From: a virus
Lineage: Duplodnaviria; Heunggongvirae; Uroviricota; Caudoviricetes
Virus record (IMG/VR): IMGVR_UViG_2534681990_000031
Direction: 5' to 3' (one strand)
Length of the DNA stretch: 39,588 nt
In this document: positions 1 to 37,498 of the stretch, piece after piece
How the letters are laid out: each line of letters starts with the position of its first letter
Numbering within the stretch: position 1 is the stretch's first letter
Notes under the pieces: generated by a model
Database searches by the model: none
What the model was told of the DNA's origin: nothing
Seen by the model: only the letters and a program-made list of their open reading frames with translations
Position numbers and translations under genes: made by a program

Positions 1-1554
1 TTATTTCAGATTCTTTCTAATTATTTTCCCCGAGCAATTACGTGGCAGATCTTTTCTGATCTCCAGATAAGAGGGCACTTTAAATTTCGCCATATTTTGT
101 TCGCAGAAGCGGAAAAATTCCTCTTCGCTCAATGTTTCACCTTCATTCAGCACCACAAATGCTTTGATGGCTTCATCGCGAATCGAATCTTTAATACCCA
201 CAACCACGATATCCTGAATTTTTGGATGGGTGGCGATGATATTTTCCAGCTCCACGCAGGAGACATTCTCGCCACCGCGTTTGATCATATTGCAGCGGCG
301 ATCGACGAAATAAAAAAAGCCCTCTTCGTCGCAGTATCCGGTATCGCCGGTATGTAGCCAGCCGTCGGCTTCCAGCACTTTCGCAGTGGCTTTCGGGTTG
401 AGAAAATACTCTTTGAAGATGGTTTTCCCTGGTACGCCTTTAATACAGATTTCACCGATCTCACCTGCCGGGAGCGGGCGATTGTGATCGTCGCGGATCT
501 CCGCTTCGTAGCAAAACCCCGCCCGACCAATCGACGGCCAGCGTCGTTTATCGCCAGGGCGATCGCCGATAATGCCCACAATGGTTTCCGTCATCCCATA
601 AGACGTCAGCAAGCGAACGCCGAAGCGTTCACAAAACGCATCTTTTTCCTGCTCCGACAAGTTGAGATAAAACATCACTTCCCGCAGGCGGTGTTGCCGA
701 TCGTTCGCTGAAGGCGGCTGCACCATCAACGTACGGATCATCATCGGAATACATTCGGTAATGGTGGCGCGGTACTTCTGCACCTGTCCCCAGAAGGCGC
801 GGGCGCTGTATTTCTCGACCAGCACAAAGGTGGCCCCGGCAGAAAACGCCGCCATCGCCGCAGTACACTGGCAATCGATATGAAACGCAGGCATTACCGT
901 CAGGTAGACGTCATCGTCACGCAGTGCACACTGCCAGGCGGAGTAATATCCAGCGAAGCGCAGGTTGTAATGGGTAATCACCACACCTTTCGGTCGGGAG
1001 GTGGTGCCGGAGGTGAAGAGAATTTCCGCCGTATCGTCAGTCAATAGCGGCGGTGCATAGCACAAGGTGGCAGGTTGTTGATTTTTCAGTTGAGTAAACG
1101 AACTCACGCCATCATCAGCGGGAAGTGCCACATCTGTCAGGCAAATGTGCCGCAATTGAGTGGCATCTTCCTGCTGAATCTGTTGATACATAGGATAGAA
1201 TTGCGCACTGGTCACCAGCAGGCACGCCTGGCTATTTTGCAGGATCCACGCGCTTTCCTCGCGTAACAGGCGGGCGTTAATCGGCACCATAATCGCGCCA
1301 ATTTTTGCCAGCCCGAACCAGCAAAAGATAAATTCCGGGCAGTTGTCGAGATGTAGTGCAACCTTGTCGCCTTTGCGAATCCCCAGCGTATAAAACAGGT
1401 TTGCCGTGCGGTTAATCTCCTGATTTAACTCAAGATAACTATACCGGTTAACGACTCCGCCGCTGGATTCACAAATCAGCGCCGTTTTATGACCGTAAAC
1501 GTCCGCCAGATCGTCCCACATTTGACGTAGATGTTGTCCGCCAATGATATCCAT
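1..1554 (-). CDS. caiC: crotonobetaine/carnitine-CoA ligase CaiC (host gene)
   Basis: Track ORF 1..1725(-); protein from [29 protein letters not shown] matches recalled E. coli CaiC; adenylate-forming motifs [10 protein letters not shown] and YGMTE; stop codon at window bases 1-3; in-frame ATG at 1569 (MDRGAM) is an alternative start. Confidence 0.9.
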
Positions 1555-1599
1555 TGCACCTCTATCCATTTTTGTTCGTTTGTTATTGGTATAGCGCGG

Positions 1600-1680
1600 C
1601 GATTTTTTTGATACCGATTTGCATTTCATTTGATACCGCTGAAAAACGCCGATACGCAACTTATTTGATACTAAATCGGC
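1600..1680. repeat. three direct TTTGATAC(C/T) repeats at phage right end, candidate transposase binding sites
   Basis: TTTGATACC near 1607 and 1629, TTTGATACT near 1664 (22 and 35 bp spacing); adjacent GAAAAACGC resembles the recalled Mu attR site core. Confidence 0.4.
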
Positions 1681-1717
1681 GCTTTTCTTTTGAGTTTTAG
1701 AATGAGTTTTTAAGCGC

Positions 1718-2455
1718 TCATTCACTCTCTTTCAAACCAGTTTTAACTGTTTGTGGTTTTGGGTAAGGCTGGACTTTGAATAGCTTTGTGTTGAGGCGTT
1801 TTCTGGCCCTCTTGTTCAGAAACCGGATGTAACGAAACTGTCGGAACTTATGCACACTGGCTCTGTCGATATTAGCCCTCAGATGTTCACCTCGTTGTCC
1901 GCCTCGTTTAATGGCATTCCTGCAAATCTCGTGATACCACTCGCCATCAAGTTCATAGAATGTTGATTCATGGCTGCCTACATAATCAAAATTGCTTGCC
2001 TGATACACGACACCAAGACAGCCACAACGCTCATCTGCAAACGACTGAACCCACTGTACCTGCGGATAAAGCTGCCTGATTAGCTTGAGCGCGTAACTGA
2101 TTGCCCTTGATTCGGAGTTTCTCGGCATACAGTCATGCATCCATAGCCGGTTAAGCTCCATATATTCTCGGTTCTGCGTACCCGTTACGACGCGTGCACC
2201 ACTGTTTGGGTTAAGGGCGTAACCCCATTGCATTACGCCAACAAGTTCCCGTTCTGAAAATATACCCAGATGAAGGTAGGAATTATTTACGAAACGGTGG
2301 CTGTAATGTTTATTGACGATAACCAGTCTGGCCAGCCAGCAACTTATTGTCTCAACCCGCAACTCACGGGAGCCATAACCAACGATATTGTCGTTATAGC
2401 GAATAAGTTCAGGCGTGCTGATGATACGGGATGTGACTTGCTTTCTGTTCCCCAC
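1718..2455 (-). CDS. mom: Mom-like DNA modification protein (anti-restriction adenine modification)
   Basis: Track ORF 245 aa; last gene before the phage right end; overlaps the 3' end of a Com-like zinc-finger ORF as in Mu; listed first codon is GTG so true start uncertain. Confidence 0.7.
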
Positions 2456-2609
2456 GACAGGATTTCCTTGTGTATGTGGGGTGCTCTGTGGCGCTCGGAG
2501 ATGTGATTTGATTGAGGGTTTTACTGCGCGGACATTTTACTTCCAGATAACTGAAACTGGCCCGTGCCAGTAGCTTATTGCAGTGTCGGCACCGTATGTT
2601 TCGATACAT
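2409..2609 (-). CDS. com: Com-like zinc-finger translational activator of mom
   Basis: Internal Met of track ORF 2409..2654 gives [30 protein letters not shown], resembling recalled Mu Com (IRCKNCNKLL...RCPRCK); overlaps mom start by ~47 bp. Confidence 0.65.
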
Positions 2610-2649
2610 GACCGCATAACCTCCTGCTTTGTTGTTGATGCCTTTCTCA

Positions 2650-2680
2650 TGCAATCGATCGACAAAAACGATCGATTCGA
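2650..2680 (-). promoter_or_regulatory. GATC/TCGATCGA cluster upstream of com-mom, candidate Dam-sensitive regulatory region
   Basis: Two GATC sites ~13 bp apart (about 2657 and 2670) within palindromic TCGATCGA/CGATCGAT about 50 bp upstream of com start; Mu mom promoter is regulated through clustered GATC sites. Confidence 0.4.
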
Positions 2681-2723
2681 TTTGTTTAATTGATACAACA
2701 AATAGATTGAAAAGTCATCAACA

Positions 2724-3188
2724 ATGATTCAGGGAGGTGATTATTTACTTAAAGAAAACGAAGAGTTAGGTGGTGAAAACGATCATAAAATGATCATTTT
2801 ATTGACTTTTTATACAGTGAAGGTAGGATCACGCGTACATGTAGTATGTTTCAAATCAACAGGATACTACATAAAAGTGAAACCCAGCATAGCTGGAACT
2901 ATGCTGGGTCAATCTGTAAAAACTTGCATCAATGCTTTACTTCGAGCTCGTGGCGTATCCTATGATATTCCCCGGTCTCCTGTAAAGCAGAGATGCATAA
3001 AAAGGAGATCTTTATCATGGATGAAAGAGCCTGTTTGCCCTGCCTGTAAGACTCCCTTACAGCTCATCTATCGCCGTTCTCGATCTCAAAATGGCAAGAC
3101 ATACAAACCCAAAAATGCTTCCTGTTTCAGGATGCTGATATGTCCTGCCTGTTCTCCCAGGAGGGAAAATACACAAAACGTGCATTAA
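2724..3188 (+). CDS. hypothetical Cys-rich protein; likely real product is the C-terminal ~55 aa (CPAC...CPAC) from an internal Met near 3021
   Basis: Track ORF 154 aa; C-terminal MKEPVCPACKTPLQ...CFRMLICPACS with AAGGAG-like RBS upstream of the internal ATG; convergent with minus-strand genes across a shared hairpin; N-terminal two thirds look non-protein-like. Confidence 0.25.
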   Translation: MIQGGDYLLKENEELGGENDHKMIILLTFYTVKVGSRVHVVCFKSTGYYIKVKPSIAGTMLGQSVKTCINALLRARGVSYDIPRSPVKQRCIKRRSLSWMKEPVCPACKTPLQLIYRRSRSQNGKTYKPKNASCFRMLICPACSPRRENTQNVH

Positions 3189-3197
3189 CAAATTCAC

Positions 3198-3217
3198 CCG
3201 GCAGGGAAACCTGCCGG
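3198..3217. terminator. perfect 8-bp stem / GAAA loop hairpin between convergent ORFs, candidate bidirectional terminator
   Basis: CCGGCAGG-GAAA-CCTGCCGG; ~10 bp downstream of plus ORF stop (3188) and minus ORF stop (3227); T-rich flank on both sides is only moderate. Confidence 0.45.
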
Positions 3218-3226
3218 TCGGTATTG

Positions 3227-3472
3227 TTACATCATAGTACCGTCAGTTCCGGGCTGAACCGGCTCTGGTTGCTCTACGGGTTGAGGATCATTTTCCGTGC
3301 TGTTTTCAGCCGGAGAACGGCCAACCATTCGGGCCAGCACTTCATCAACATATGCGTCGATTTGTGCCTCAAAATCCTTGCGAACCTGCGCCTTCAGCAC
3401 GCGGTTCACTTCTTCAGAATAAAGTGCCTGTTTGACAAGCTCTTCAGTAACCGTGCCTTTAATCTCTGGCAT
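3227..3472 (-). CDS. hypothetical small charged protein (81 aa), cargo island
   Basis: Track ORF; AAAAGGAGAATATTC-ATG RBS; protein-like composition (MPEIKGTVTEELVKQALYSEEVNRVLKAQVRKDFEAQIDAYVDEVLARMV...). Confidence 0.5.
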   Translation of the reverse strand: MPEIKGTVTEELVKQALYSEEVNRVLKAQVRKDFEAQIDAYVDEVLARMVGRSPAENSTENDPQPVEQPEPVQPGTDGTMM

Positions 3473-3507
3473 GAATATTCTCCTTTTGCAGGTATATTGC
3501 CCCGTTA

Positions 3508-3690
3508 TCAGAGCGGGGTCGGGTCGTTTGGGGATGACGGTGCCTGTGCTGTTTTACTGAGTTTTTCAGCTGCCGCATCATCAATTTTACGGCGAATATA
3601 ATTTCTGATGACCTTATAACCACCGCTCACCAGATATAACGCACTGACCACAGCGCAGAAATAAAGCAGCATTGTATGAACGAATGTCAT
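3508..3690 (-). CDS. hypothetical small membrane protein (60 aa, one N-terminal TM helix then basic tail)
   Basis: Track ORF MTFVHTMLLYFCAVVSALYLVSGGYKVIRNYIRRKIDD...; AAGG RBS; immediately upstream of the 81-aa ORF. Confidence 0.45.
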   Translation of the reverse strand: MTFVHTMLLYFCAVVSALYLVSGGYKVIRNYIRRKIDDAAAEKLSKTAQAPSSPNDPTPL

Positions 3691-3803
3691 ATAACCTTAC
3701 CTTTGATATTGACTACATAATTCGTTATCGGGTAAAAACATCGAAGCGACTGATAACCACTCCTTCGGGAGTATTTTTATTTTCCTTTATGGGTTAGGTA
3801 GCT

Positions 3804-3838
3804 CCCGCCAGCCATATCATGACCGGCGGGATTTTTTT
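3804..3838 (+). terminator. GC stem (CCCGCC...GGCGGG) followed by T7 run, plus-strand terminator-like element overlapping esterase stop codon
   Basis: 6-bp stem with 15-nt loop then ATTTTTTTAT; T run is on the plus strand only; the loop is long for an intrinsic terminator. Confidence 0.3.
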
Positions 3839-5876
3839 ATTCTGTTACCGCTTTTTTCACTTCCACCACAATGCTGTCAATCAGCACCGGGTAAGTTGCA
3901 TTTTTTGTGATATCCGTTACGCGGAGTTTGTCCACCGGGAAAGTTCCTACTGGTGACTGCGTCAGGGTAAACGCGGCACCATCCTGACCATCAATAACCG
4001 GAATAACCTGAAGGCTGTTATTTCCTGCAAAACGGAAGGCCAGCGTATGCCATTCATTATCAAATGCACCAAAGGTTCCCAGTTTCTGGTTATTTGTTGC
4101 CACTTTTGCATTGTGGTACATCACATTCAGGTCTTTTGCGTCTGTCTGGATGTAGAACGATGCCAGCAGATTATTCCCTGCATCCCCTGTCAGGGTGACA
4201 CCCTGCGGCAGAGAGGAAACCGGCCAGTAAAGCCCCATGACATACTGGTTTGCCACCAGGTCGCCAGGTACTTTAAAACGACAACTGATTAAACCACCAT
4301 TTTTCAGCAGTTCAGCACCAGTACCGGCATCATGATCCAGATACCAAGATGATTTACCTGTTTCCTTGGTCAGTTTCATTGCCTTACCACCTGTGCCTCC
4401 TGCATCACTGATAATTTCAGCTTTACCGCCAGCCGGCTCCCAGCCCTGGGCTTTCAGATTTCCTTCTGACTCACTGACACGATAAGACAGCAGTGTTGTG
4501 GTTACTGCTTCAGTTTCTGAAGGTGACGGCACTGGTGCTTCAGTTTCAGAAGATGGAACATCGGCTTTTACTGTGGTTCGCCCCGCATGAGTCAGAACTG
4601 CCGTGGCCAGACGGTCGGAAATAATCCCACGACGTGCCCATGAACTGAAATGGCTGGCCCGGTCCGCAGATGTCCAGGTGGCGGCACTGTTACGCCACGT
4701 TGAGCCGTAATAACCAATGGATTCAATATCCGGGTCTTCTGCCGGATTGTTGGTGGGTACATTCGCGTCATTTTCATCTGTCATTAATGGAACGAAATGA
4801 ATGTTTTTATCTGTTTTGTTTTTGTAGCCGCCATAGATTGCCTGGTATGCCGGTTCATTTTTCTGTTTCCAGAAATACGTGGTATCGCCACAAATCCACG
4901 GAACGCCAGCAGCACTGCCACCGGTACACTGTTCCGCCTGTTCAGCCAGGTCTGCGCGGAATTTTTCCACCATCGCCAGAAACAGCGCGGAATGCTCCGT
5001 CGGCTTCGCATCAATATCAAACTCGCCCTGCATCCACACCACAGCAAGCAGGCGGTTTTTCGGGTTCTTCGCCAGTGCCGCTTTTGTCCGGCTGATTAAG
5101 TCCTTATACAGCGGCTTATCCACACCCCAGCGGGCTGAGTCCTCTGAAGCACCCGTGCTGTCACTGTACGTGCCGTCAGCACCCGCCGTGAATGCAGAAC
5201 CACCACGGCAGCAGGGAACCAGCAGAATCCCCGCATCTGCCGGAATAAACGGCAGCAGTTTTTTGGCAATGTGAAGCCCCTGACCCACGGTGCCATATTG
5301 CCCTTTAGCCACATCCGCTTTCGGGTGATTTTTTCCACTCATATCCTGCACATCATGCAGACAGTGGTCGGCCAGAATGATGTCGTTATACTGACAGGCT
5401 TTACCTCCCGGCGTGACTGTACTGCGACGGGCTAACTGCATAATACGCGGTTCGGGGCGGTCATATGTCTCCGGCAGTGGCAGACCTTCACCGTAAGCCA
5501 TACCGTTTGACTGACCAGCAAGAACCACCACGTAATACCAGGAAGGGGAGCTGGAAGCAGTTTCATTTCCTGACGGACGGGTATGTGTTTCAGCATTATC
5601 CCAGTCTGACGGTTCAGCAGTACCGGCAACATCAGCACTTAACGGAATGACCGCACCAATACCCGCTCCGGTAATTTCCACACTCGGATCACCGGATACT
5701 GGCCTTACCCACAGGCAATCCCGTGTATTAAAACTGATGAGACAGTCAGCAAATGTCATTCCTCCTTTTGTTTCGGCCGGAGGAAAGGGAGCCTCAAGAA
5801 ATGCCGCTGTACCACCGGAAACTTTAACAGTAAAGTTTCCGGGCATTGATGATAGTTGAACCCATTTGGACGTCAT
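3837..5876 (-). CDS. putative sialate O-acetylesterase-type SGNH/SASA hydrolase with C-terminal beta-rich (lectin-like) domain; NanS-p-like prophage cargo
   Basis: Track ORF 679 aa; VVVLAGQSNGMAYGEG (GQSN block I) and LLAVVWMQGEFD motifs typical of the SASA esterase family; S/T/P-rich linker PSSETEAPVPSPSETEA; sits between gin and com where Mu has no gene. Confidence 0.6.
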   Translation of the reverse strand: MTSKWVQLSSMPGNFTVKVSGGTAAFLEAPFPPAETKGGMTFADCLISFNTRDCLWVRPVSGDPSVEITGAGIGAVIPLSADVAGTAEPSDWDNAETHTRPSGNETASSSPSWYYVVVLAGQSNGMAYGEGLPLPETYDRPEPRIMQLARRSTVTPGGKACQYNDIILADHCLHDVQDMSGKNHPKADVAKGQYGTVGQGLHIAKKLLPFIPADAGILLVPCCRGGSAFTAGADGTYSDSTGASEDSARWGVDKPLYKDLISRTKAALAKNPKNRLLAVVWMQGEFDIDAKPTEHSALFLAMVEKFRADLAEQAEQCTGGSAAGVPWICGDTTYFWKQKNEPAYQAIYGGYKNKTDKNIHFVPLMTDENDANVPTNNPAEDPDIESIGYYGSTWRNSAATWTSADRASHFSSWARRGIISDRLATAVLTHAGRTTVKADVPSSETEAPVPSPSETEAVTTTLLSYRVSESEGNLKAQGWEPAGGKAEIISDAGGTGGKAMKLTKETGKSSWYLDHDAGTGAELLKNGGLISCRFKVPGDLVANQYVMGLYWPVSSLPQGVTLTGDAGNNLLASFYIQTDAKDLNVMYHNAKVATNNQKLGTFGAFDNEWHTLAFRFAGNNSLQVIPVIDGQDGAAFTLTQSPVGTFPVDKLRVTDITKNATYPVLIDSIVVEVKKAVTE

Positions 5877-5975
5877 AATAATCAGCCTGTTCCTGAATAA
5901 ACTGAATTATCATATCCACAGACCGATAAACGCCATTTTGCGTTAATTCAGTAAAGGCCCAACAAAGGGAGCGTC

Positions 5976-6536
5976 TTATTTTTCCGAAACGCTCGCAGGA
6001 TAATAACGATAAAGGGTTGAAAGGCCGATATCAAAAATAAGTGCCACCTGTCTTCGACTGACACCCCCGGCCAGTAAACGCCCGACCTGCTCGTATTGTT
6101 CCTGCGTGAGACGACGGGGTCTGCCGCCGGTTCGTCCCCTTTCACGGGCAGCTGCAAGACCAGCCCGTGTCCGTTCGACAATTAATTCACGCTCCATTTC
6201 TGCCAGCGCACCCATTATGTGAAAAAAGAAGCGCCCCATGGGGGTTGACGTATCAATGTTGTCAGTAAGACTACGAAAATTTATCCCCTGTTGCTGTAAT
6301 TCATCTGTCAGCGCAACAAGGTGGCGCATACTGCGCCCCAGCCTGTCCAGTTTCCAGACCATCAGTGTGTCACCGGGTTTTAGTTTCTTCAGTGCCCGCT
6401 TCAGTCCCGGCCGCTGTGTCGTTTTACCACTCATTTTATCTTCAAAAATCTGCTCACATCCTGCACATTCCAGCGCATTTCTTTGTAAACCTGTGTTCTG
6501 GTCATTTGTTGATACGCGTATATAGCCAATCAGCAT
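5976..6536 (-). CDS. gin: Gin/Hin/Pin-family serine DNA invertase
   Basis: MLIGYIRVSTNDQNTGLQRNALECAGCEQIFEDK... closely resembles recalled Mu Gin including catalytic-Ser motif RVSTNDQ and C-terminal HTH. Confidence 0.9.
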   Translation of the reverse strand: MLIGYIRVSTNDQNTGLQRNALECAGCEQIFEDKMSGKTTQRPGLKRALKKLKPGDTLMVWKLDRLGRSMRHLVALTDELQQQGINFRSLTDNIDTSTPMGRFFFHIMGALAEMERELIVERTRAGLAAARERGRTGGRPRRLTQEQYEQVGRLLAGGVSRRQVALIFDIGLSTLYRYYPASVSEK

Positions 6537-6591
6537 GTATTTACCTTCCTTAAAAAGAGGTGGAAAGGCCTTTTAAAGCAGATATACGGCA

Positions 6592-6617
6592 TCCCTGAAA
6601 CCTCGGTTTACGGGATA
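6592..6617. other. gix-like recombination site (left crossover)
   Basis: AAACCTCGGTTTACGGGA resembles the recalled Mu gix core AAACCTCGGTTTACAGGAA; lies ~60 bp upstream of gin start; inverted-repeat homology with the tail-fibre gene begins here. Confidence 0.5.
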
Positions 6618-6961
6618 CTGTAAACAGGGCCGCGAATGCCCTGCCATCGAACGGAGCGGCTGTTGCAGCGAATAAACTCGCCACTCCAAGAAATATTAAT
6701 GGTGTCCCATTTGACGGAACGCAGGATATAAATATTACATCGGGGATGACGCAGTCTGTGGCTGACTCACGTTATGTTCAAAGCATTCGAAGAGGTTCAA
6801 GGTCAACGATTGGAATGCAATATAATATTTTTGAGGTTCCTGACGGATGCGTACTTACAGGGCTTGATGTCGCTGGTGATGGTAATGCAACGGTAACCGC
6901 ATATTATCGACCTGTTCAGTTTCTGATAGATGGTTCGTGGAAAACAGCTTCCAGCGCATAA
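6599..6961 (+). CDS. silent alternative tail-fibre C-terminal cassette (S'v-like), promoter-less and start-less in this orientation
   Basis: Open frame begins right after a TGA at the gix site; shares ~60 aa with the expressed fibre then a distinct 60-aa tip ...GCVLTGLDVAGDGNATVTAYYRPVQFLIDGSWKTASSA. Confidence 0.6.
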   Translation, partial: NLGLRDTVNRAANALPSNGAAVAANKLATPRNINGVPFDGTQDINITSGMTQSVADSRYVQSIRRGSRSTIGMQYNIFEVPDGCVLTGLDVAGDGNATVTAYYRPVQFLIDGSWKTASSA

Positions 6962-7040
6962 AAGTGCAGTAGTTCAAAAAACAGATTATCTGAATAAATA
7001 TATGATGATTTTGTCTTTTCAACAAAAACAAGGTGAAATA

Positions 7041-7562
7041 ATGGAGCTTATTAACGTAAAACGATATTACCCGGAACACAAACCCTATGGTGAGGATGTT
7101 CAGTATTTCCAGAGTGAGGACGGAAGGGATTTTTATGAATCTATCCCGCTTTTCACAAAGAAATACAAACTCTGTATTTCGCCTGTAACGGGTATTATCT
7201 GCTCTGTTGCTGAAGATGTCTCTGCTTTATATCCGGCAGGTTTTACTGTTGTTGAAGTGGACGAACTGCCGGAAGGTGTGAATATTGACGGTAACTGGCA
7301 GTTTTCTGATGGCCTGATATCAAAGGTGCCGGTAAACTGGAAGACGGTTGCTGAAAAGCGCCGCTCATCGCTGCTCCAGGAAGCCAACGAAACTGTGGAT
7401 GACTGGAAAACGGAATTAAAACTGGACATGATTAGCGATGAAAATAAATTACAGCTGACGCGCTGGATGGCGTATATCCGACAGCTTAAAGAAATGCACT
7501 TTAATGATATTGCCAGTGAGGGGCATTACCAGGCGATTCCCTGGCCGGAAAAACCGGAATAA
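7041..7562 (+). CDS. tail fibre assembly chaperone (Tfa/U'-like)
   Basis: MELINVKRYYPEHKPYGE...GFTVVEVDELPEGV...AIPWPEKPE has Tfa-family architecture; AAGGTG RBS 6 nt upstream; follows the silent tip cassette; track ORF starts earlier at 6930. Confidence 0.7.
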   Translation: MELINVKRYYPEHKPYGEDVQYFQSEDGRDFYESIPLFTKKYKLCISPVTGIICSVAEDVSALYPAGFTVVEVDELPEGVNIDGNWQFSDGLISKVPVNWKTVAEKRRSSLLQEANETVDDWKTELKLDMISDENKLQLTRWMAYIRQLKEMHFNDIASEGHYQAIPWPEKPE

Positions 7563-7568
7563 TTCAGA

Positions 7569-7589
7569 GGGTGCATTCAGCACCCTTTT
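7569..7589. terminator. hairpin GGGTGC-ATTCA-GCACCC plus TTTT between convergent Tfa and tail-fibre genes
   Basis: Lies in the 35-bp gap between Tfa stop (7562) and fibre stop (7597), inside the invertible segment. Confidence 0.4.
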
Positions 7590-7596
7590 CTGTGGT

Positions 7597-8508
7597 TTAC
7601 ACTGAACTTACCGTTCTCCAGGCATTATTAATATAAATCTGAACCGGGCGATAATAGACCCCACCGATATTGTCCGCAGACCGGGAGCCGGTTTCCTGCA
7701 CGTTAATTCCGGAAAGCATACAACCGGAAGGTGCGCTGTAATTCCATGACATTTCATTGCCTCCGGGTGAATGATAGCTCTGTGCTCCAAGCTGAACATT
7801 CTGTACATACCGGCCATCTGCGGTTGACTGCGTCATTCCTGACGTGATGTTGATATCCAGCGTTCCGTCAAAAGGAACACCATTAATATTTCTTGGGGTG
7901 GCGAGTCTGTTTGCTGCCACGGCGGTTCCACCCGATGGCAGGGCATCAGCAGCCTTATTTACCGTTTCCCGTAAACCGACGTTATCGATAAAAGCGCCTT
8001 TATCCGGAATGTCTGCGCCGTTCTGCTCCCTGCGCAGGTAACGGTTATCACCTTCGCTTTTGCTGTAAACATCCAGATTATTACGGGCGGTTCCCGCATT
8101 CTCCAGGTCGGCAAGGTTCTGATCCTTCGCCAGAGCATTAACGTCACCGGGACCAAGACTGTTTTTTGTGGCAAGCGCCCCAAGACCAAGATAACCACGG
8201 GCAAGACGCTGGGCTTCCGCACCGGCATCAGCAATTTCTTTCAGGTTGTTTTTCCGGGAAAAGGCATTCGCAGCGATAATGGCTTTAATGGACAGCGTAA
8301 GCTGGTTTAACTGCGCCTTATCCGGCTGAATACTGGCTTCAGCCAGAATATTCAGCAGTTCGGCCTGGAGAATATTCAGCCAGTCCTGACCAATCCAGCT
8401 GATACCTTTTTGTCCGTCACCTTCGGTAAACCAGGTGGTGGTATTACTCTGCGCCGGTGCCAGCGCAGGCATATTCGCCACGCCGGAATTATTATCAACA
8501 TGGAACAT
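7597..8508 (-). CDS. tail fibre protein (S-like), constant N-terminus plus currently expressed variable tip
   Basis: Start MFHVDNNSG (ATG overlapping stop of upstream gene as TAATG); Gly/Asn/Ala-rich fibre-like sequence; C-terminal 67 aa unique to this orientation; track ORF extends to 8562. Confidence 0.8.
   Translation of the reverse strand: MFHVDNNSGVANMPALAPAQSNTTTWFTEGDGQKGISWIGQDWLNILQAELLNILAEASIQPDKAQLNQLTLSIKAIIAANAFSRKNNLKEIADAGAEAQRLARGYLGLGALATKNSLGPGDVNALAKDQNLADLENAGTARNNLDVYSKSEGDNRYLRREQNGADIPDKGAFIDNVGLRETVNKAADALPSGGTAVAANRLATPRNINGVPFDGTLDINITSGMTQSTADGRYVQNVQLGAQSYHSPGGNEMSWNYSAPSGCMLSGINVQETGSRSADNIGGVYYRPVQIYINNAWRTVSSV
7966..7991. other. gix-like recombination site (right crossover, inside tail-fibre gene)
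   Basis: Minus-strand ATAACGTCGGTTTACGGGAAAC at codons for NVGLR; start of homology with left site. Confidence 0.45.
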
Positions 8509-9068
8509 TAAATATTCTCCTCTTCGTGACTGTTTGCATATACGTAAATAAACGTCTGCCATGCAGGCTTATAACGGTTCAGAATACATTCCAGCGCACC
8601 GCCTTCATAAATACGCAGCGGCGTGAGAATATCATCCAGCACATTCATATTCCGGTAGCCGGTTTCACTGTTAATCGTGACAATACTGACCCACTGTGAA
8701 TCCGGTGATGGCTGAATATCTATTTCATAACCAAACTCTGCCGCAAACCGGATATAAAATTCACGGTTAAGAGAGGGTTTCATCCGGTATTTATTCCCGG
8801 CATAACGCTGACGCTCCTGAATGGTTGCGCCGGTCATATCACATTCCGGTAACCCCAGATAACGCTCCCAGTCTTCCAGCAGCAGACGGGATGAATCAGG
8901 AAAACGTTCTGCCAGCATCTGGTTACCGGTCCAGGAAACACGCTCCGTGGAATGACTGAGGCCCAGGCACAAAGCCGCAAGAACGGATGACGGCCGCTTA
9001 TCCCATGCCAGCCCGTCAGGCAGCAACTGCAACAGGGCGCGCTGATGCGGGGTCAGGGTTACAGCCAT
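8508..9068 (-). CDS. tail/baseplate protein (Mu gp48-like)
   Basis: Track ORF 186 aa directly upstream of tail fibre, downstream of baseplate J-like gene; translationally coupled. Confidence 0.65.
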   Translation of the reverse strand: MAVTLTPHQRALLQLLPDGLAWDKRPSSVLAALCLGLSHSTERVSWTGNQMLAERFPDSSRLLLEDWERYLGLPECDMTGATIQERQRYAGNKYRMKPSLNREFYIRFAAEFGYEIDIQPSPDSQWVSIVTINSETGYRNMNVLDDILTPLRIYEGGALECILNRYKPAWQTFIYVYANSHEEENI

Positions 9069-18991: not shown

Positions 18992-19407
18992 ATGAAGCCC
19001 TTCTGGTTGCGCCCGAATACCGCTGCATCAGACTGAACCTGTGGTAAATCCCCGGATTCAGGGGCCGCACCGTTCGTATCCACACCGACCGGCACATTGC
19101 CGTTCATGACATCTTTCAGCCAGGCCAGCGCTTCACGGTAACGGTCACGCGCCTGATCGGAGGCTCGCTGATCGCACAGGTAATAAAAGGCAATCGCGCA
19201 ACAGTGCTGAACAAGAACGGCCGGAATAACCTCCAGCGGCAACGTGTAACGGGCGGACAGATAGCTGTCGATAAGGGCTGACGCATCTGTCAGCGCCCGG
19301 TTCAGCTTGCGCGTGTCCGGCTCATCCGAACGGGGCACAGCCAGTAACGGCCTGAGCAAATCCTCGCGGTAACGCGCCCGCATATCGGTTTCAGTGGCGT
19401 AATTCAT
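18988..19407 (-). CDS. head-tail joining protein (Mu gp36-like)
   Basis: 139 aa; synteny downstream of major head gene. Confidence 0.55.
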   Translation of the reverse strand: MNYATETDMRARYREDLLRPLLAVPRSDEPDTRKLNRALTDASALIDSYLSARYTLPLEVIPAVLVQHCCAIAFYYLCDQRASDQARDRYREALAWLKDVMNGNVPVGVDTNGAAPESGDLPQVQSDAAVFGRNQKGFI

Positions 19408-19778
19408 GCACGGGCCTGTTCCGCTTTGTTACCGGTCTTTTTCCGGGGAGCATCCTGTCCGGCTTCGGCTTCGGCTTCGGCTTCGGCTTCGGCTTCGGCT
19501 AAATCTGTACCGGCCACTGCATGAACCACACCCGCCACGCTCCCCGCATCATCAGCAGACGTCTGTAGTATTCGCACAGTGAGGCATGGCTCCTCCTCCA
19601 GTCGGGCAAGCTGCTCCGGGGTGACCTCAACCTGCTGACGTCCACGCGTGAACAGGAACCCCGCACGACGAAACGCCGAACGACTGCAACGCACTTCTGC
19701 CAGCACCGTGACAGAATTGTCACCACTGACCTGAAGACCTGAATCATCTGTTGCTGCCACAGTGTGATGTTCATTCAT
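19404..19778 (-). CDS. head-associated protein (Mu gp35 position) with C-terminal (Glu-Ala)n tract
   Basis: 124 aa; ...LAEAEAEAEAEAEAGQDAPRKKTGNKAEQARA; located between major head and gp36-like genes. Confidence 0.55.
   Translation of the reverse strand: MNEHHTVAATDDSGLQVSGDNSVTVLAEVRCSRSAFRRAGFLFTRGRQQVEVTPEQLARLEEEPCLTVRILQTSADDAGSVAGVVHAVAGTDLAEAEAEAEAEAEAGQDAPRKKTGNKAEQARA
19461..19500. repeat. (GGCTTC) hexanucleotide tandem repeat, ~6.7 copies, in-frame inside a CDS
   Basis: ggcttcggcttcggcttcggcttcggcttcggcttcggct read directly; encodes (EA)n on the minus strand. Confidence 0.9.
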
Positions 19779-30871: not shown

Positions 30872-31164
30872 GCTGTATCAACACTCCTGCGGATATGATA
30901 GGTATTATTTTCCCGATCGAGCTGAACCCGATACTCCGGAGGAATCACAAAAATATTAAAACCATCATCAGTTTTTATTCTTGAGTAGCATTCCCCCTTA
31001 TGATATCTGGCCAGTGCATTAATCAGAGAAGTCGCAGCCTGCCCAATCAGGTATTTTTTATGAAAAATACTGATAACTTTCCGGCACAGCCATCGTGTAA
31101 TGACGAATGCACCGAAAAAGGATGTGATATATAAATACCAGAACAACTGCGAACTACTGTCCAT
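30868..31164 (-). CDS. hypothetical membrane protein (98 aa, one N-terminal TM helix)
   Basis: Track ORF; LFWYLYITSFFGAFVITRWL TM segment; AT-rich codon usage; overlapping starts/stops with neighbours. Confidence 0.5.
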   Translation of the reverse strand: MDSSSQLFWYLYITSFFGAFVITRWLCRKVISIFHKKYLIGQAATSLINALARYHKGECYSRIKTDDGFNIFVIPPEYRVQLDRENNTYHIRRSVDTA

Positions 31165-31351
31165 TATCTTTCTCCTTATTCAGTCTTCTGCGGCATTCGG
31201 CACAGTCATCAGGGCTTTCAAATGTATCCGGCTCGCGATTATGAGCCAGATATAACCACCGTCCACATATACTGATATTTTCGCCTGTTTTAAAAAAATG
31301 ATGCTTCCTGGCCATTAGTGGCCGCGCCCATCCAGCGGGTAGACTATTCAT
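31154..31351 (-). CDS. hypothetical small Cys-containing protein (65 aa)
   Basis: Track ORF; C...CAEC arrangement (ICGRW...DDCAECRRRL); AT-rich. Confidence 0.45.
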   Translation of the reverse strand: MNSLPAGWARPLMARKHHFFKTGENISICGRWLYLAHNREPDTFESPDDCAECRRRLNKEKDNGQ

Positions 31352-31679
31352 TTGCTTTATCCTCCATGCTGGACAGAATCATATGTATTAATGTCGGGCG
31401 TGGAGATATACGCATTTCATTAAGCGTCTGAAGGGCAGCAACAGCTGCCTGTTTATCGGTGCCTTTGGCAATTTCAGCAAGAGAATGCACAATCCATAAT
31501 GGGCTTAACGCTACGGCTGAATGCAGAATCATGTCATCCATAATAATTTCTGGCATATCCCGTTTGTCACATTCTTTATCCATAAAAGAAACGATTTTTT
31601 CTGCATCTTCCGGTTTCATGCCTCCGGCGATGAGAATTTTACGATATTCATAAGACGATCTTAATTCAATACTCATCAT
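31344..31679 (-). CDS. hypothetical protein (111 aa)
   Basis: Track ORF; AT-rich block; translationally coupled with neighbours. Confidence 0.5.
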   Translation of the reverse strand: MMSIELRSSYEYRKILIAGGMKPEDAEKIVSFMDKECDKRDMPEIIMDDMILHSAVALSPLWIVHSLAEIAKGTDKQAAVAALQTLNEMRISPRPTLIHMILSSMEDKANE

Positions 31680-31691
31680 TCACCTGCCTGT

Positions 31692-32060
31692 TTAATCAGT
31701 TTCCAGTGCTTTGCTACGGGCAACAGCCTCACACTCAAAAAATACCGACTCCGGCACACGCTCCTTTAATTCACGAACAAGAAAATCATTAACGAGTTCA
31801 TGACGTCTTATATTTCTTTCCTTTTCCTCCTGGCGCAATACAGCAAGGCGGTATTCAACAGTCCGGCGTTGTTTCTGAAAGACAGCCAGTGCTTTTCTGG
31901 CAGAGTTACGCAATGTATCATCGCCACAGGGTTCGTATTCAAGCTGAAATTTAATCTCTTCAATGGTTTCTTTTATTTTTGCCAGCAAGCTAAGACAGTC
32001 GCTGATTGTCTTCAGTTTTTCATTATCAATATAACTTCTCACGCATTCACCTCCCGTCAT
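31692..32060 (-). CDS. hypothetical coiled-coil protein (~122 aa)
   Basis: Track ORF 31692..32084; start moved to internal ATG (MTGGECV) that abuts upstream stop. Confidence 0.45.
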   Translation of the reverse strand: MTGGECVRSYIDNEKLKTISDCLSLLAKIKETIEEIKFQLEYEPCGDDTLRNSARKALAVFQKQRRTVEYRLAVLRQEEKERNIRRHELVNDFLVRELKERVPESVFFECEAVARSKALETD

Positions 32061-32368
32061 TCCGGTAAAGCTGAAATATGGCACCAGTGCGTCACCTGTC
32101 CGTCCTCATCTTCAAGGCAGGCTCCGGTTTCTTCATCAATAAAAAAGCCTTCATACCCCATATGGCCGATGCGCAGTTCCTGTTGGTCACCATACTGAAC
32201 AATCAGCACGACAGCCTCCATATCAGGCGGGAAAGCATCATTCAGTGAATGCCAGGGATAACCGCGCAAATCCCCGAAATAAACACCGGTCAGCGTTCCG
32301 CCACAGACCGGCATTCCGACGGCACACACAAGGGGTTCATCTGATTCAACAAATAATGTCGTTATCAT
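32057..32368 (-). CDS. hypothetical strongly acidic protein (103 aa)
   Basis: Track ORF; ~20 Asp/Glu versus few basic residues; ATGA overlap with upstream gene. Confidence 0.5.
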   Translation of the reverse strand: MITTLFVESDEPLVCAVGMPVCGGTLTGVYFGDLRGYPWHSLNDAFPPDMEAVVLIVQYGDQQELRIGHMGYEGFFIDEETGACLEDEDGQVTHWCHISALPE

Positions 32369-32916
32369 GGCATTAATTCCCGTAATACAACATCTTCGGC
32401 AGTCCGACGACGGTGATAAATAAAACTCACCGTGCCCTCGGATAATTCAAATTTCTCGCCGATTTCCCTAAAGGTAAGACGCCGTGGTGATTCAGCATCC
32501 CGTAATTCACGAATAAGACGAACATCATCGTCAGGTATGCGGGTGAAGGGCAGCAACTCTCCGTATTTTTTCATGCTTACGCCAATATATCGCGCCCGAT
32601 TGTGGACAGAATCCCGGTCTCGCCCCAGATATTCTCCTATTTGCTTACCGGTCATTGTTCTGGCATTTTTTCGGATAAATTTATCTTCATCAGGTTTAAA
32701 TCTGAGGCGTTTGCATTTGAGCAACTCCGGGTAAGTACCGCGTAATAAAACAATCCGGTTATGTACACCCCAGAAACTTCTTTTTATCCTGACAGCAATA
32801 TCCTTAACCGGGGTGGATGGATAAAGCGCAATCAGCAGCGCATCTTCTTCAGGTGTCCATGCGCGAACATGAGCGGGTGCACGGCCTTTTCTCCCCATGG
32901 GTTGTAATATCATCAT
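32365..32916 (-). CDS. hypothetical DNA-binding protein with three HTH-like repeats
   Basis: 183 aa; three ~50-aa segments each ending in an HTH-like stretch (KDIAVRIKRSFWGVHNRI; GKQIGEYLGRDRDSVHNRARYIG; LTFREIGEKFELSEGTVSFIYHRRR). Confidence 0.5.
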   Translation of the reverse strand: MMILQPMGRKGRAPAHVRAWTPEEDALLIALYPSTPVKDIAVRIKRSFWGVHNRIVLLRGTYPELLKCKRLRFKPDEDKFIRKNARTMTGKQIGEYLGRDRDSVHNRARYIGVSMKKYGELLPFTRIPDDDVRLIRELRDAESPRRLTFREIGEKFELSEGTVSFIYHRRRTAEDVVLRELMP

Positions 32917-32919
32917 GCA

Positions 32920-33435
32920 TCACCCCCTGACTCGCTTTTCAGCAGCATAAAACTCATCAGACAGAATTTCGGTCATTTTCTGATTTGCGGGTTTTACGCC
33001 GCACTCAAGGTAAATCACATCGTCAACGCAGAACCACTTCACAGGGCCAAACATGATTGCCGAGAAATCAATACCCAGCCAGAACAACAGTGCATCGGTT
33101 CTGGCATACGTGACGGGCGAATATTCACGCCACAGACTGTTAAGTTCGTCAGAGGCAACGCGCAGGGCTTTGGGAATACGTGATGTGCGCGGTGTGCAGC
33201 TCCAGCCATTCGACGCAGTCGGTTTTCGCCATAAGTCGCGATGAAAAGGATATTTGTCATCCATAAAGCGCAGCCCTTTAAAACAAAAGCCACTGATACC
33301 GGATACAAATACCGACCGGCACGCAACATTCAGCACGGCCTCAAGGCGTTTTGCCTCATCCTTAACTTTCTGGCAGTCCTGCTGATATTTTTGCCACGCG
33401 GCCAGCGCGGAAGGGTTTGATGTTTTAAAGAACAT
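32920..33435 (-). CDS. hypothetical protein (171 aa)
   Basis: Track ORF in early operon, translationally coupled. Confidence 0.5.
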   Translation of the reverse strand: MFFKTSNPSALAAWQKYQQDCQKVKDEAKRLEAVLNVACRSVFVSGISGFCFKGLRFMDDKYPFHRDLWRKPTASNGWSCTPRTSRIPKALRVASDELNSLWREYSPVTYARTDALLFWLGIDFSAIMFGPVKWFCVDDVIYLECGVKPANQKMTEILSDEFYAAEKRVRG

Positions 33436-33968
33436 TACGCCACCTCCGCAGATATCCCGGCAGGCGCGGCCGTCCGGTCAACAATCAGGTAACGCAGAAC
33501 GCGCGAGGTGATATTCCAGCCGCTTAAACCGCAGATAATGACACCCAGGCGTATGTCGATATACGCCATCACAAACTGGGGCACGCCTTCTTTCATGGCC
33601 TGCTCATCAACTTCAGCCACCACATAAACGGTTTCACAGGTCAGAACGCCCTGAGCAAATTCCCACGCCATTGACGGAATATCATGCCCCTCAATCCACG
33701 GCAGGGATTTTCTGAAGCTGCACCACTGAACATCATCAGCCGCACCTTCCTGGCTGCATTTGCGACGAACCGGCTGCACCGGGCGGGGACGCGGAATATC
33801 ATAAAAACCGTTACATTCCGTCAGCACCCCGGCATCGACCGCATCACGCAGAAAATAAACCATCGAGGATGGCGGCATATTCATTTTTTCAGCCAGAATG
33901 CCGCAGGTCAGACGCCCGTAAATACTCAGCCAGTTTTTAACCCCTTCAAGCACTTTTGCACCAATCAT
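33435..33968 (-). CDS. hypothetical protein (177 aa)
   Basis: Track ORF in early operon. Confidence 0.5.
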   Translation of the reverse strand: MIGAKVLEGVKNWLSIYGRLTCGILAEKMNMPPSSMVYFLRDAVDAGVLTECNGFYDIPRPRPVQPVRRKCSQEGAADDVQWCSFRKSLPWIEGHDIPSMAWEFAQGVLTCETVYVVAEVDEQAMKEGVPQFVMAYIDIRLGVIICGLSGWNITSRVLRYLIVDRTAAPAGISAEVA

Positions 33969-33971
33969 GAA

Positions 33972-34514
33972 TTATTCCTCCGTCAGCGCCACATATTCAG
34001 AATGTTTAATCTCCTGGCATTCTTCAGGAATACCCCCTTTTATTTCCCTGCCATAAGCGCCTACTTTAAACACCACGCACAGGGCATCACGGGAGAGCGA
34101 CGGGGTCCACCAGGAGTCCATGTTAAACATGGAGGGGATTCTCATTACCCCCAGCTTTTCACAGAGCCAGACAAGGAAATCAGGACGCTTTCTTAACTCG
34201 CGTTCAGCGGCTTCAATCATTGCGGCAATCGCCGGTCCTTCAGGGCATGACTCATCAGGTCTGGCAATAAAGCACGGTCCGTCCCCGATAAAAGCCACAT
34301 CATCGCGCTTACGCCAGCCCGCAGGCAGAGCACCAGAAAAATAAAACTCACTGATTACGTCCATGGCAAACGGCTTTAAGCGCAATCCGGCAGCGCCTGT
34401 ATTTTTCAGTAATGCCCGAAGAATACTGTTGCGTAGCGGTAAAACAGTCTGTTGATATTTGGTGAAATATTTATTTGTCTGCACACGGTCTAATTTGAAA
34501 TAAAAATATGCCAT
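33972..34514 (-). CDS. hypothetical protein (180 aa)
   Basis: Track ORF; AAGGAACAGGATAT-ATG RBS; first gene after gam. Confidence 0.5.
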   Translation of the reverse strand: MAYFYFKLDRVQTNKYFTKYQQTVLPLRNSILRALLKNTGAAGLRLKPFAMDVISEFYFSGALPAGWRKRDDVAFIGDGPCFIARPDESCPEGPAIAAMIEAAERELRKRPDFLVWLCEKLGVMRIPSMFNMDSWWTPSLSRDALCVVFKVGAYGREIKGGIPEECQEIKHSEYVALTEE

Positions 34515-34611
34515 ATATCCTGTTCCTTATTTTCAGTTTACAGGCGCAGGCAGTCCCCTGACGCGAGCGCCATACTTAAAACGATGTGATATTTAAAGAT
34601 TTAATGCGGTG

Positions 34612-35142
34612 TTATTTATTCAGTCCGGCGTCCTGTTCAAAAGGCTCGACATAAAAACTTTCAGCGCCTTTATTCACCTTAATACCGGCAATGCCTTTCA
34701 CTGCATCCGGCTCCGCTAGGACCGCTTCCTTGTTCACTTCCTCTTTCGTGCGGATGAATCGCTCAAGCCCCATACGGCGCAGCATTTCAATCACACCTTC
34801 CACATCACGGCTGACGCTGCATGATGGATTTCCCAGCCGCCATGACACTGTTCCGGTGGTCAGATTGGCTGTTTTGGTTTTGCCGCCGTTCGTCAGCTCA
34901 TCGCGGTTGGTTTTGCACCAGTCCTGAATCCCCTTAAAAAGCACTTTGATTTCTTTTTTAAGGTTTTCAATCTGCGGCGTATAACGGGCGGTGATTTCTG
35001 CCACTTCATCATTCATCGCCGTTTCCAGCCGTAGCGCCTCTCGCTGAATATCGCCCAGGGTACGGATATCGCGGCTGACTTCTTCGCGGGTCTGCGGTGC
35101 AGCCTCGGCTGCGGCCTTTAATTTTGTAACACGTTTAGCCAT
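34612..35142 (-). CDS. gam: Gam-like DNA-end binding protein (host nuclease inhibitor, Ku-like)
   Basis: MAKRVTKLKAAAEAAPQTREEVSRDIRTLGDIQREALRLETAMNDEVAEI...DELTNGGKTKTANLTTGTVSWR closely resembles recalled Mu Gam. Confidence 0.85.
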   Translation of the reverse strand: MAKRVTKLKAAAEAAPQTREEVSRDIRTLGDIQREALRLETAMNDEVAEITARYTPQIENLKKEIKVLFKGIQDWCKTNRDELTNGGKTKTANLTTGTVSWRLGNPSCSVSRDVEGVIEMLRRMGLERFIRTKEEVNKEAVLAEPDAVKGIAGIKVNKGAESFYVEPFEQDAGLNK

Positions 35143-35153
35143 TTTGTTTTTCC

Positions 35154-35447
35154 TTATTGCAGTGTGCCTGATGCTTTATGCACGCGGTGGCGTTTAATGA
35201 TGGCATCCGCCCCAAAAGCCTGTACAGATGCCTGAAATTCCGCTGAGAGAAACTGAATAATTTCAGGACTGTGATACTGGAGAATACTTGCATAAACGCC
35301 ACAGAGTGACGTCGGCCTGTTATTCGTATCACGTTCTGTTTTTACATCCACACCAATCTTTTCATGCACTTCAACACAGTCATTGCCTGCCGGTTTTTCG
35401 TCATGCGAAACATGCTTAAATTCAAAAATAACGCGTACTTTGCTCAT
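35154..35447 (-). CDS. hypothetical protein, paralog 2 of tandem pair (97 aa)
   Basis: Internal ATG of track ORF 35154..35474; N-terminus MSKVRVIFEFKHVSHDEK parallels neighbour MSKVVRIIFEYKEHVIHK; AGGGG RBS. Confidence 0.5.
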   Translation of the reverse strand: MSKVRVIFEFKHVSHDEKPAGNDCVEVHEKIGVDVKTERDTNNRPTSLCGVYASILQYHSPEIIQFLSAEFQASVQAFGADAIIKRHRVHKASGTLQ

Positions 35448-35451
35448 GGAA

Positions 35452-35724
35452 TTACCCCTGCTGATTAAATTCATTACCTTTAATAACCCCGGAACGCATG
35501 CTCATATCTTTCATGAGCGCACTGGCTTTCATTGCCACAAGTTCAGCAAAGTCTCTGCTTTCCGCGAGCATAACCACCCCAAAAATCATGGCGGGTCCAT
35601 CACCTTTCTGCTTTATCCCGGTTGAACGTATGTCCAGACTTACCCCCATGCGCACTGTTCCATCAGCGTTTTTATGGATAACGTGCTCCTTGTATTCGAA
35701 AATAATGCGTACGACTTTACTCAT
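35452..35724 (-). CDS. hypothetical protein, paralog 1 of tandem pair (90 aa)
   Basis: Track ORF; ATGA overlap with upstream ORF. Confidence 0.5.
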   Translation of the reverse strand: MSKVVRIIFEYKEHVIHKNADGTVRMGVSLDIRSTGIKQKGDGPAMIFGVVMLAESRDFAELVAMKASALMKDMSMRSGVIKGNEFNQQG

Positions 35725-35927
35725 CCTCTGGTCCTCGTTCTGTTTGGATAACTGACCCGGCGTCTGACCTCACGGCAGAACCGAATCATGGCATTAAAGG
35801 CTTCTTCCTCCGTCACCGCTTCCGGTATCCCCGGAACCAGTAACTGCTCCTGTTCATCACGTCCATGACGCGCCATAACCTCAATCACATGCCGTACCGT
35901 GGCAGGCTTTCCGGCAACTATCGGCAA
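35721..35927 (-). CDS. hypothetical small protein (<=68 aa)
   Basis: Track ORF with TTG first codon; internal GTG/ATG starts possible; weakly supported. Confidence 0.35.
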   Translation of the reverse strand: MPIVAGKPATVRHVIEVMARHGRDEQEQLLVPGIPEAVTEEEAFNAMIRFCREVRRRVSYPNRTRTRG

Positions 35928-36002
35928 TGCACCTTCCGGCAGGACGTAACCAAACTCAATAAGACCACTCGACCACGCCCATGCAATGAGATTTTTTTCA
36001 CC

Positions 36003-37464: not shown

Positions 37465-37498
37465 AACCTGAGTCGCCGCTCGGGTTATTTTTTTATTT
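37465..37498. other. hairpin with T7 run in A-B intergenic region
   Basis: AACCTGAG-TCGCCG-CTCGGGTT then ATTTTTTTATTT on plus strand; adjacent ATTTGATACC shares the right-end repeat motif. Confidence 0.3.

Follow-up and report, generated by a model that had tools for sequence, protein, structure and literature searches.

A predicted NanS-p-type sialate O-acetylesterase with a replaced N-terminal module in the Sp18-type lineage of Mu-like prophages

Introduction

Why does a transposable, Mu-type prophage carry, beside its DNA invertase gene, an esterase gene of a kind so far treated as a metabolic helper of Shiga toxin (Stx) phages, and what stands in place of the domain with which the enzymes of those phages begin? 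The locus that raises this question lies in the IMG/VR record IMGVR_UViG_2534681990_000031, a stretch of 39,588 nucleotides (hereafter the window), in which a minus-strand open reading frame (ORF) occupies exactly positions 3837–5876 from ATG to stop codon. We hold with good confidence that this ORF encodes a NanS-p-type esterase that is fixed in the Sp18-type lineage of Mu-like prophages, and propose more tentatively that its N-terminal module is a tether to the phage particle. The kind of enzyme and the prophage lineage, which is widespread and has been known since 2001, were already familiar; the replaced N-terminal module and its behaviour are new. These first ~112 residues, which are not DUF1737, form the most distinctive feature of the protein and went unremarked in the original prediction, which had been made from the letters of the window. 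The lambdoid NanS-p proteins with which we compare it come from Stx and non-Stx prophages and are L0105/z1466 of phage 933W, vb_24B_21 of phage phi24B (the same as gp84), and those of phages 1720a-02 and 1717.

Architecture and active site of the esterase

The product of the ORF (679 residues plus stop) is identical to RefSeq WP_010917876.1, labelled "DUF6645 domain-containing protein", and the gene is ECs_4993 of Escherichia coli O157:H7 Sakai (tblastn 100%), where it is annotated as "hypothetical protein". Judging from its sequence, the protein is very probably a three-module sialate O-acetylesterase of the NanS-p type. The original prediction of a catalytic domain resembling SGNH sialate-O-acetylesterases is borne out by the Pfam SASA family (residues 116–312, E 6.5e-12) and by a PDB sequence search, in which residues 104–428 matched the NanS/YjhS structure 3PT5, a 9-O-acetyl-N-acetylneuraminate esterase, with E 1.9e-118; the domain, placed at residues 113–430 (4587..5540, minus strand, as are all parts of the gene), is ~65% identical to NanS. 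The beta-rich C-terminal domain that had been foreseen is equally apparent as a lectin-like jelly-roll domain at residues 461–679 (3840..4496), which matches the NanS-p C-terminal domain structure 6YP6 over residues 459–674 (E 1e-111) and Pfam DUF6645 over residues 524–642 (E 2.4e-69). Between the two lies linker 2 (residues 431–460, 4497..4586), rich in Ser, Thr and Pro, which holds the internal PS(S)ETEA duplication that the original prediction had pointed out (PSSETEA/PSPSETEA; PSSETEAPVPSPSETEA, residues 441–457).

The four SGNH blocks typical of NanS (I, II, III and V) are all conserved in register with 3PT5, where they read 17-GQSNA, 120-RGGSAF, 178-MQGEFD and R-x-SHFS-303 (PMC10792757). 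In the window protein, block I is GQSN (121–124) with the nucleophile Ser123 (codon 5508–5510), block II is RGGSAF (224–229), block III is MQGEFD (282–287, within the WMQGEFD motif of residues 281–287 cited originally), and block V is RASHFS (406–411) with the base His409 (codon 4650–4652). The check proposed at the outset, an alignment to a catalytic Ser/His/Asp triad, therefore holds only for Ser123 and His409; block V reads R-A-S-H with no canonical D-x-x-H, and an Asp is not to be expected in this family. NanS itself lacks a catalytic Asp, R-x-S-H replacing D-x-x-H and a main-chain oxygen serving as the acid (PMC10792757), and block V of NanS-p is reported in two forms, of which RASH is one (PMC10462455). 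As aligned, the RASH block V marks the NanS subtype and not a loss of function.

The window protein thus has in common with chromosomal NanS (YjhS, 3PT5) the SGNH fold and the atypical blocks GQSN, RGGSAF, MQGEFD and R-x-SHFS; NanS, however, is a single domain of ~330 aa belonging to the nan regulon, whereas the window protein is phage-encoded and bears additional modules at both its N and C termini. By inspection of its first ~30 residues, it has no N-terminal hydrophobic signal sequence, and its substrate can therefore be reached only after lysis or on the particle. By analogy with NanS and NanS-p, the esterase would remove 9(7,8)-O-acetyl groups from the sialic acids of mucin glycans, including Neu5,9Ac2, and the lectin-like C-terminal domain probably targets it to the glycan. 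The NanS-p enzymes of EDL933 and O104:H4 enable growth on Neu5,9Ac2 and remove O-acetyl groups from mucin glycans (reviewed in PMC8065619).

At the end of the gene, a G+C-rich hairpin followed by T7 (3804–3838, plus strand) overlaps the esterase stop codon and is conserved in the lambdoid phages 1720a-02 and 1717. Its orientation is such that it would stop transcription entering the gene antisense and would not terminate the gene's own transcript.

An N-terminal domain in place of DUF1737

Lambdoid NanS-p proteins begin with DUF1737, continue with SASA and end in a lectin-like domain (PMC10462455). The window protein is collinear with those of phages 1720a-02 (76%) and 1717 (73% overall) only from about residue 111 to its end, where the SASA domains are 81–82% and the C-terminal DUF6645 domains 79–82% identical; the S/T/P-rich inter-domain linker, the adjoining DUF1378 and DUF826 genes and the lack of a signal peptide are likewise common to both. 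The first ~110 residues are unrelated to the 1720a-02 and 1717 proteins, and DNA similarity to Stx phages ends at about 5530–5540 of the window. Where the lambdoid enzymes have DUF1737 (~50 aa), the window protein has an unrelated beta domain of ~80 aa (residues 1–80, 5637..5876) and a linker of ~30 aa (linker 1, residues 81–112, 5541..5636) that is acidic, S/T-rich and ends in SSSPS. Pfam found DUF1737 neither in the full esterase nor in residues 1–113, and no match of any kind for residues 1–113. From these comparisons, we conclude that a previously undescribed beta domain and its linker replace DUF1737.

An AlphaFold2 model built on a four-sequence alignment predicts residues 1–78 as an all-beta domain, a small cupin-like barrel, with block-mean pLDDT of 75–90 for residues 1–70, followed by a disordered linker at residues 81–110 (pLDDT <50); a single-sequence model of the full protein (mean pLDDT 33.8) was not used. 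Fold searches with the N-terminal model returned only generic cupin-like matches and no known adaptor or anchor, and we assign no function from the fold.

The domain appears to be confined to this one protein family. In a phmmer (HMMER) search of 1.84 billion representative proteins, it had five matches: four were fragments of such esterases, and in the fifth, a protein of 1,445 aa, a repeat domain was weakly similar (E 3e-8, 34% identity). Leaving that one aside, every relative of the domain carries a GQSN esterase fused to it. Searches of word-indexed proteins with the N terminus retrieved only fragments of the same gene family, a scan of one genome per species did not find the domain, and a profile comparison gave a weak match to phrog_4772 (79 positions, function unknown; E 0.005), to which the N-terminal domain of a Salmonella relative is closer (E 1.2e-5). 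This Salmonella protein, again a fusion to a GQSN esterase, is the most distant of the esterase relatives, only 28% identical in the N-terminal domain. Its gene occupies the same place as the one in the window, after gp45-gp46-gp47-gp48, a fibre gene, an invertible segment and a resolvase gene, in a Mu-like prophage that has diverged from the window (67% identity in gin, 30% in gp47). When its N terminus was searched by tblastn against 50,697 phage records, only two Stx-phage records with an inserted Mu-like phage were found. The domain has thus been seen only in E. coli, Shigella and Salmonella, where it is fused to such esterases of Mu-like prophages.

The two Stx-phage records are GenBank LC727881.1 and LC727895.1 (locus L002), in which a copy of the Mu-like phage with 95.7% identity across the esterase region lies inside an Stx prophage. 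These composites combine the lambdoid-type and the Mu-type esterase contexts.

Exchange of modules and selection

A comparison of modules among the 19 distinct full-length Mu-type proteins recovered reveals how the N-terminal domain behaves. Window-like proteins of allele A are 98–100% identical to the window protein in the N-terminal domain, 98–100% in SASA and 85–100% in the C-terminal domain. Three further allele A loci (L015, L016 and L018) match it at 98–99% in the N-terminal domain, at 67–69% in SASA and at 40–48% in the C-terminal domain, and allele B proteins are 58–59%, 69–71% and 68–75% identical, respectively. The catalytic and lectin modules of the window are therefore nearer to those of the lambdoid NanS-p proteins (see above), whose N-terminal DUF1737 is unrelated, than to those of other Mu-type alleles. 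Between L007, which is the same as the window, and L015, synonymous divergence (dS) is 0.09–0.11 across the N-terminal domain and linker 1 and is saturated in SASA, which places a crossover at the 3' edge of linker 1, on its boundary with SASA. Taken together, these alignments indicate that the N-terminal domain stays on the Mu backbone and that exchange with the lambdoid pool affects the catalytic and lectin modules. On this behaviour, the N-terminal beta domain may be regarded as a phage-type-specific module that stands in for DUF1737.

Selection appears to act on every folded part of the protein. The ratio of nonsynonymous to synonymous divergence (dN/dS) is 0.04–0.16 for the N-terminal domain and, where dS is unsaturated, 0.09–0.26 for the SASA and C-terminal domains, and rises to as much as 0.96 in the linkers; we read this as purifying selection on all folded domains. 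The block I Ser and the block V His are invariant in the 19 distinct Mu-type alleles, and in block III only the x of QGExD varies. Of 32 IMG/VR alleles that could be read to the stop codon, 29 have an intact reading frame. In phage 1720a-02, nanS-p is followed by homologues of the two genes downstream of the esterase, DUF1378 and DUF826, equal in size and order. Their DNA has clearly diverged, so we take the module to be old and not a recent capture.

The Sp18-type lineage and its right end

The backbone on which the esterase resides encodes MuA (37498–39588), MuB, the Mu portal, gpF, the protease/scaffold gpI, the major head protein gpT, gp36, gp37, the sheath, the tape measure, baseplate J/gp47, gp48, Com and Mom. 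Its proteins are 97.5–100% identical to those of prophage Sp18 of E. coli O157:H7 Sakai (tblastn), and by this comparison the window is a Mu-type prophage that equals Sp18 but for a few bases.

The esterase cassette is a regular part of this lineage. Every IMG/VR locus with a Mom at least 97% identical and enough upstream sequence carries the esterase gene followed by DUF1378 and DUF826, and the Sp18-type arrangement recurs at each of the 34 IMG/VR loci with the N-terminal domain; among loci with Mom at or below 83%, none carries the cassette. One of the latter, L116, showed a lone match (70%) in the catalytic domain. DNA of N-terminal allele A occurs in 204 of 5,426 complete E. coli genomes and that of allele B (59% amino-acid identity) in 28, beside 228 complete E. 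coli records with an Sp18-type mom (at least 90% DNA identity) and a further 99 with a mom of the Mu/D108 type (60–80%). Hosts are mostly bovine and human E. coli that produce Shiga toxin (STEC). Since the cassette is found in every Sp18-type right end sampled, it is a defining, fixed feature of the lineage and no accident of a single genome. The gin-adjacent position of an esterase in a Mu-type phage, which the original prediction had called an unusual context, is thus real, and it is unusual only against the literature searched, being standard in ~230 complete E. coli genomes. In that literature, whose coverage did not extend to the subscription papers Rangarajan 2011, Rangel 2016 and Saile 2016, we found no link between nanS-p and a Mu-like prophage and no mention of ECs4993.

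The surroundings differ from those of the lambdoid genes. Lambdoid nanS-p lies between Q/stx and the lysis genes, whereas the window gene, in a transposable Mu-type myovirus, is flanked by gin and com-mom and, unlike in lambdoid phages, no holin or endolysin genes follow it downstream. The order of the backbone at the right end (gin-com-mom) is shared with phages Mu and D108, with a DNA identity of 71% for Mom; Mu, D108, SfMu and the other relatives with Mom at or below 83%, however, lack the esterase cassette between gin and com, and only mom is shared in this region. The invertase gene, of the gin type (Resolvase plus HTH_7 by Pfam; 5976..6536, minus), is co-directional with the esterase gene and 99 bp upstream of it, and beyond gin lies the invertible tail-fibre segment (6599..7983), which contains an alternative fibre tip and a tail-fibre assembly gene between inverted repeats at 6599–6780 and 7802–7983. 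A promoter and terminator scan found promoter-like sites no more often than in shuffled sequence, and no consensus promoter or terminator in the 99-bp gap between gin and the esterase gene. Several Sp18-type loci (L023, L024, L028, L031 and L037–L039) have no gin match, and there the tail-fibre assembly gene is the immediate upstream neighbour of the esterase gene.

Downstream, the esterase is followed by the genes for a small membrane-type DUF1378 protein (60 aa; 3508..3690, minus) and an 81-aa DUF826 protein (3227..3472, minus), and then by a variable slot that in the window holds orf154 (2724..3188, plus; phrog_26524, function unknown). This ORF has no Pfam match; it contains two CPAC motifs suggesting a zinc ribbon, and many Sp18-type loci lack it, have a shorter form or hold something else in its place. 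Neither orf154 nor the cassette proteins had a PADLOC match, and the idea of a defence system was given up. On its right, the cassette slot is bounded by the com-mom operon (1718..2654, minus), composed of com, a Com zinc-ribbon ORF (2409–2654 as listed, 2409–2609 in RefSeq), and mom (1718–2455; Pfam Mom, E 6e-77), the 5' end of which overlaps com by 47 nt. The Mom homologue is called 'hypothetical protein' in the exactly matching RefSeq record and 'protein mom' or 'Mom family adenine methylcarbamoylation protein' elsewhere.

The prophage ends on the right at about 1589–1590, upstream of caiC and 35 bp from its start codon (1554, minus strand), so the Mu-like element has inserted inside the carnitine (cai) operon, where it probably cuts caiC-E off from the operon promoter. 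The chromosomal site of the prophage varies from strain to strain (PMC7430833); in Sakai it is sorM, and in FRIK804 prpD/prpE. The G+C content is 55–60% over the structural genes (9000–31000) and 43–52% in both the right-end accessory region (1–9000) and the early region (31000–36000), a contrast that fits a mosaic origin of the prophage ends.

A possible tether to the particle, or a soluble enzyme

What, then, is the N-terminal domain for? A precedent for particle display comes from phi24B, whose NanS-p, gp84, is reported in a 2026 preprint to be an abundant virion protein that decorates the capsid, with DUF1737 domains forming hexamers on the capsid hexons and with later processing at the linkers (bioRxiv 10.64898/2026.04.10.717836). 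The window protein resembles phi24B gp84 and modular tailspikes in that an N-terminal module follows the backbone, and catalytic or binding modules are exchanged at a linker. In tailspikes of the P22 type, a conserved N terminus binds the particle and an enzymatic C terminus is exchangeable. The N-terminal fold of the window protein matches no known adaptor. By this analogy, we tentatively propose that the N-terminal domain tethers the esterase to the Mu-type particle, a role we favour because the replacement domain is conserved, linked to the backbone and known from no other setting, whereas the working modules are freely traded. Somewhat more speculative is the fuller form of the proposal, in which the domain would be an adaptor to the Mu virion and NanS-p would be displayed on virions of at least two unrelated architectures, held by DUF1737 in the phi24B-type podoviruses and by the new domain in the Sp18-type myoviruses. 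Sp18 DNA is efficiently packaged in Sakai (PMC2669165).

One lead as to what such a domain might accompany came from the structural proteins. Among 21 of these compared across 8 IMG/VR contigs of known N-terminal allele, only the gp35-position protein (19404–19778, minus; Pfam FluMu_N, "HI1506-related"), encoded next after the major head protein, split cleanly along that allele, at 97–98% versus 73–79%, a gap that partly reflects the length of an (AE)n repeat that varies in this protein. In complete E. coli genomes, the B form of the gp35-position protein occurs in 23 records, as against 28 genomes with N-terminal allele B.

Several points weigh against a tether. The co-variation with the gp35-position protein is strong and yet imperfect, with at least AST46 discordant; lineage structure may lie behind it, and we count it as a lead and not as evidence. 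Plain linkage may be enough to keep the N-terminal domain with the Mu backbone, and homology between the Mu-type and lambdoid genes starts at SASA, so crossovers are possible only from SASA onward. The esterase gene stands outside the recognised structural operon, after gin, and no promoter can be assigned to it. Finally, 3 of 34 IMG/VR esterase alleles are truncated (523, 499 and 318 aa; loci L010, L022 and L034), which implies that the gene is dispensable in some lysogens.

The same observation on linkage serves a view to which we give a substantial, if less than even, chance, much the same as that of a tether, namely that the esterase is soluble cargo of lysogenic conversion, released by lysis, that lets E. 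coli use the O-acetylated sialic acids of mucus, and that its N-terminal domain has no role on the particle and might instead aid folding, oligomerisation or a second contact with carbohydrate. Characterised NanS-p enzymes do support growth on Neu5,9Ac2 (PMC8065619), the hosts are mainly bovine and human STEC, the gene sits in the accessory right end (44–52% G+C versus 55–60% in the structural part) next to a variable slot, and the modelled N-terminal fold is similar to small cupin or carbohydrate-binding barrels. Such cargo would nonetheless have to do without a signal peptide, its presence in 100% of a mosaic lineage together with a strongly conserved, phage-type-specific N-terminal module would be unexpected, and the homologous phi24B protein proved to be structural despite an equal assumption of cargo. 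If the enzyme is carried on the virion, it could also be directed against the bacterial surface, aiding adsorption in the manner of a tailspike deacetylase by stripping O-acetyl groups from O-antigen, capsule (for example, O-acetylated polysialic acid) or colanic acid; the position of the gene after the tail-fibre, fibre-assembly and invertase genes would suit this, as would a C-terminal domain that varies between alleles (40–100%) like that of receptor-binding proteins. To our knowledge, most of the E. coli hosts (O157, O103, O111, O26) are not known for sialic-acid surface polymers, the catalytic domain is ~65% identical to NanS, an enzyme of free or glycan-bound O-acetyl sialic acid, and the phi24B protein is on the capsid and not the tail, so we regard a bacterial-surface target as unlikely, even though the idea has already been raised for NanS-p (PMC8065619).

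It is far less probable still that the cassette is a decaying, non-functional remnant of a lambdoid late region acquired by illegitimate recombination. It does keep the lambdoid order of nanS-p, DUF1378 and DUF826, and a few alleles are truncated; set against this are the intact frames in 29 of 32 alleles, the presence of the window's N-terminal allele in 204 complete genomes and the invariant catalytic Ser and His. A pseudogene or remnant was rejected on this conservation and on the dN/dS of 0.04–0.26 in the three folded domains wherever dS is unsaturated.

Implications for enteric temperate phages

The same enzyme and lectin modules placed behind a different, backbone-linked N terminus amount to a natural swap experiment. 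ECs_4993 is an uncounted paralogue of NanS-p in O157:H7 Sakai and in ~4% of complete E. coli genomes, and such Mu-type copies may escape surveys of nanS-p that are limited to lambdoid prophages or to DUF1737. If the N-terminal domain does bind Mu-type particles, then the virion display of a mucin-sialate esterase would be convergent and selected in enteric temperate phages, and the exchange of the anchor with retention of the modules would point to selection on particle display in mucus, beyond the feeding of the lysogen, with consequences for the behaviour of these phages in mucus and for their spread among STEC.

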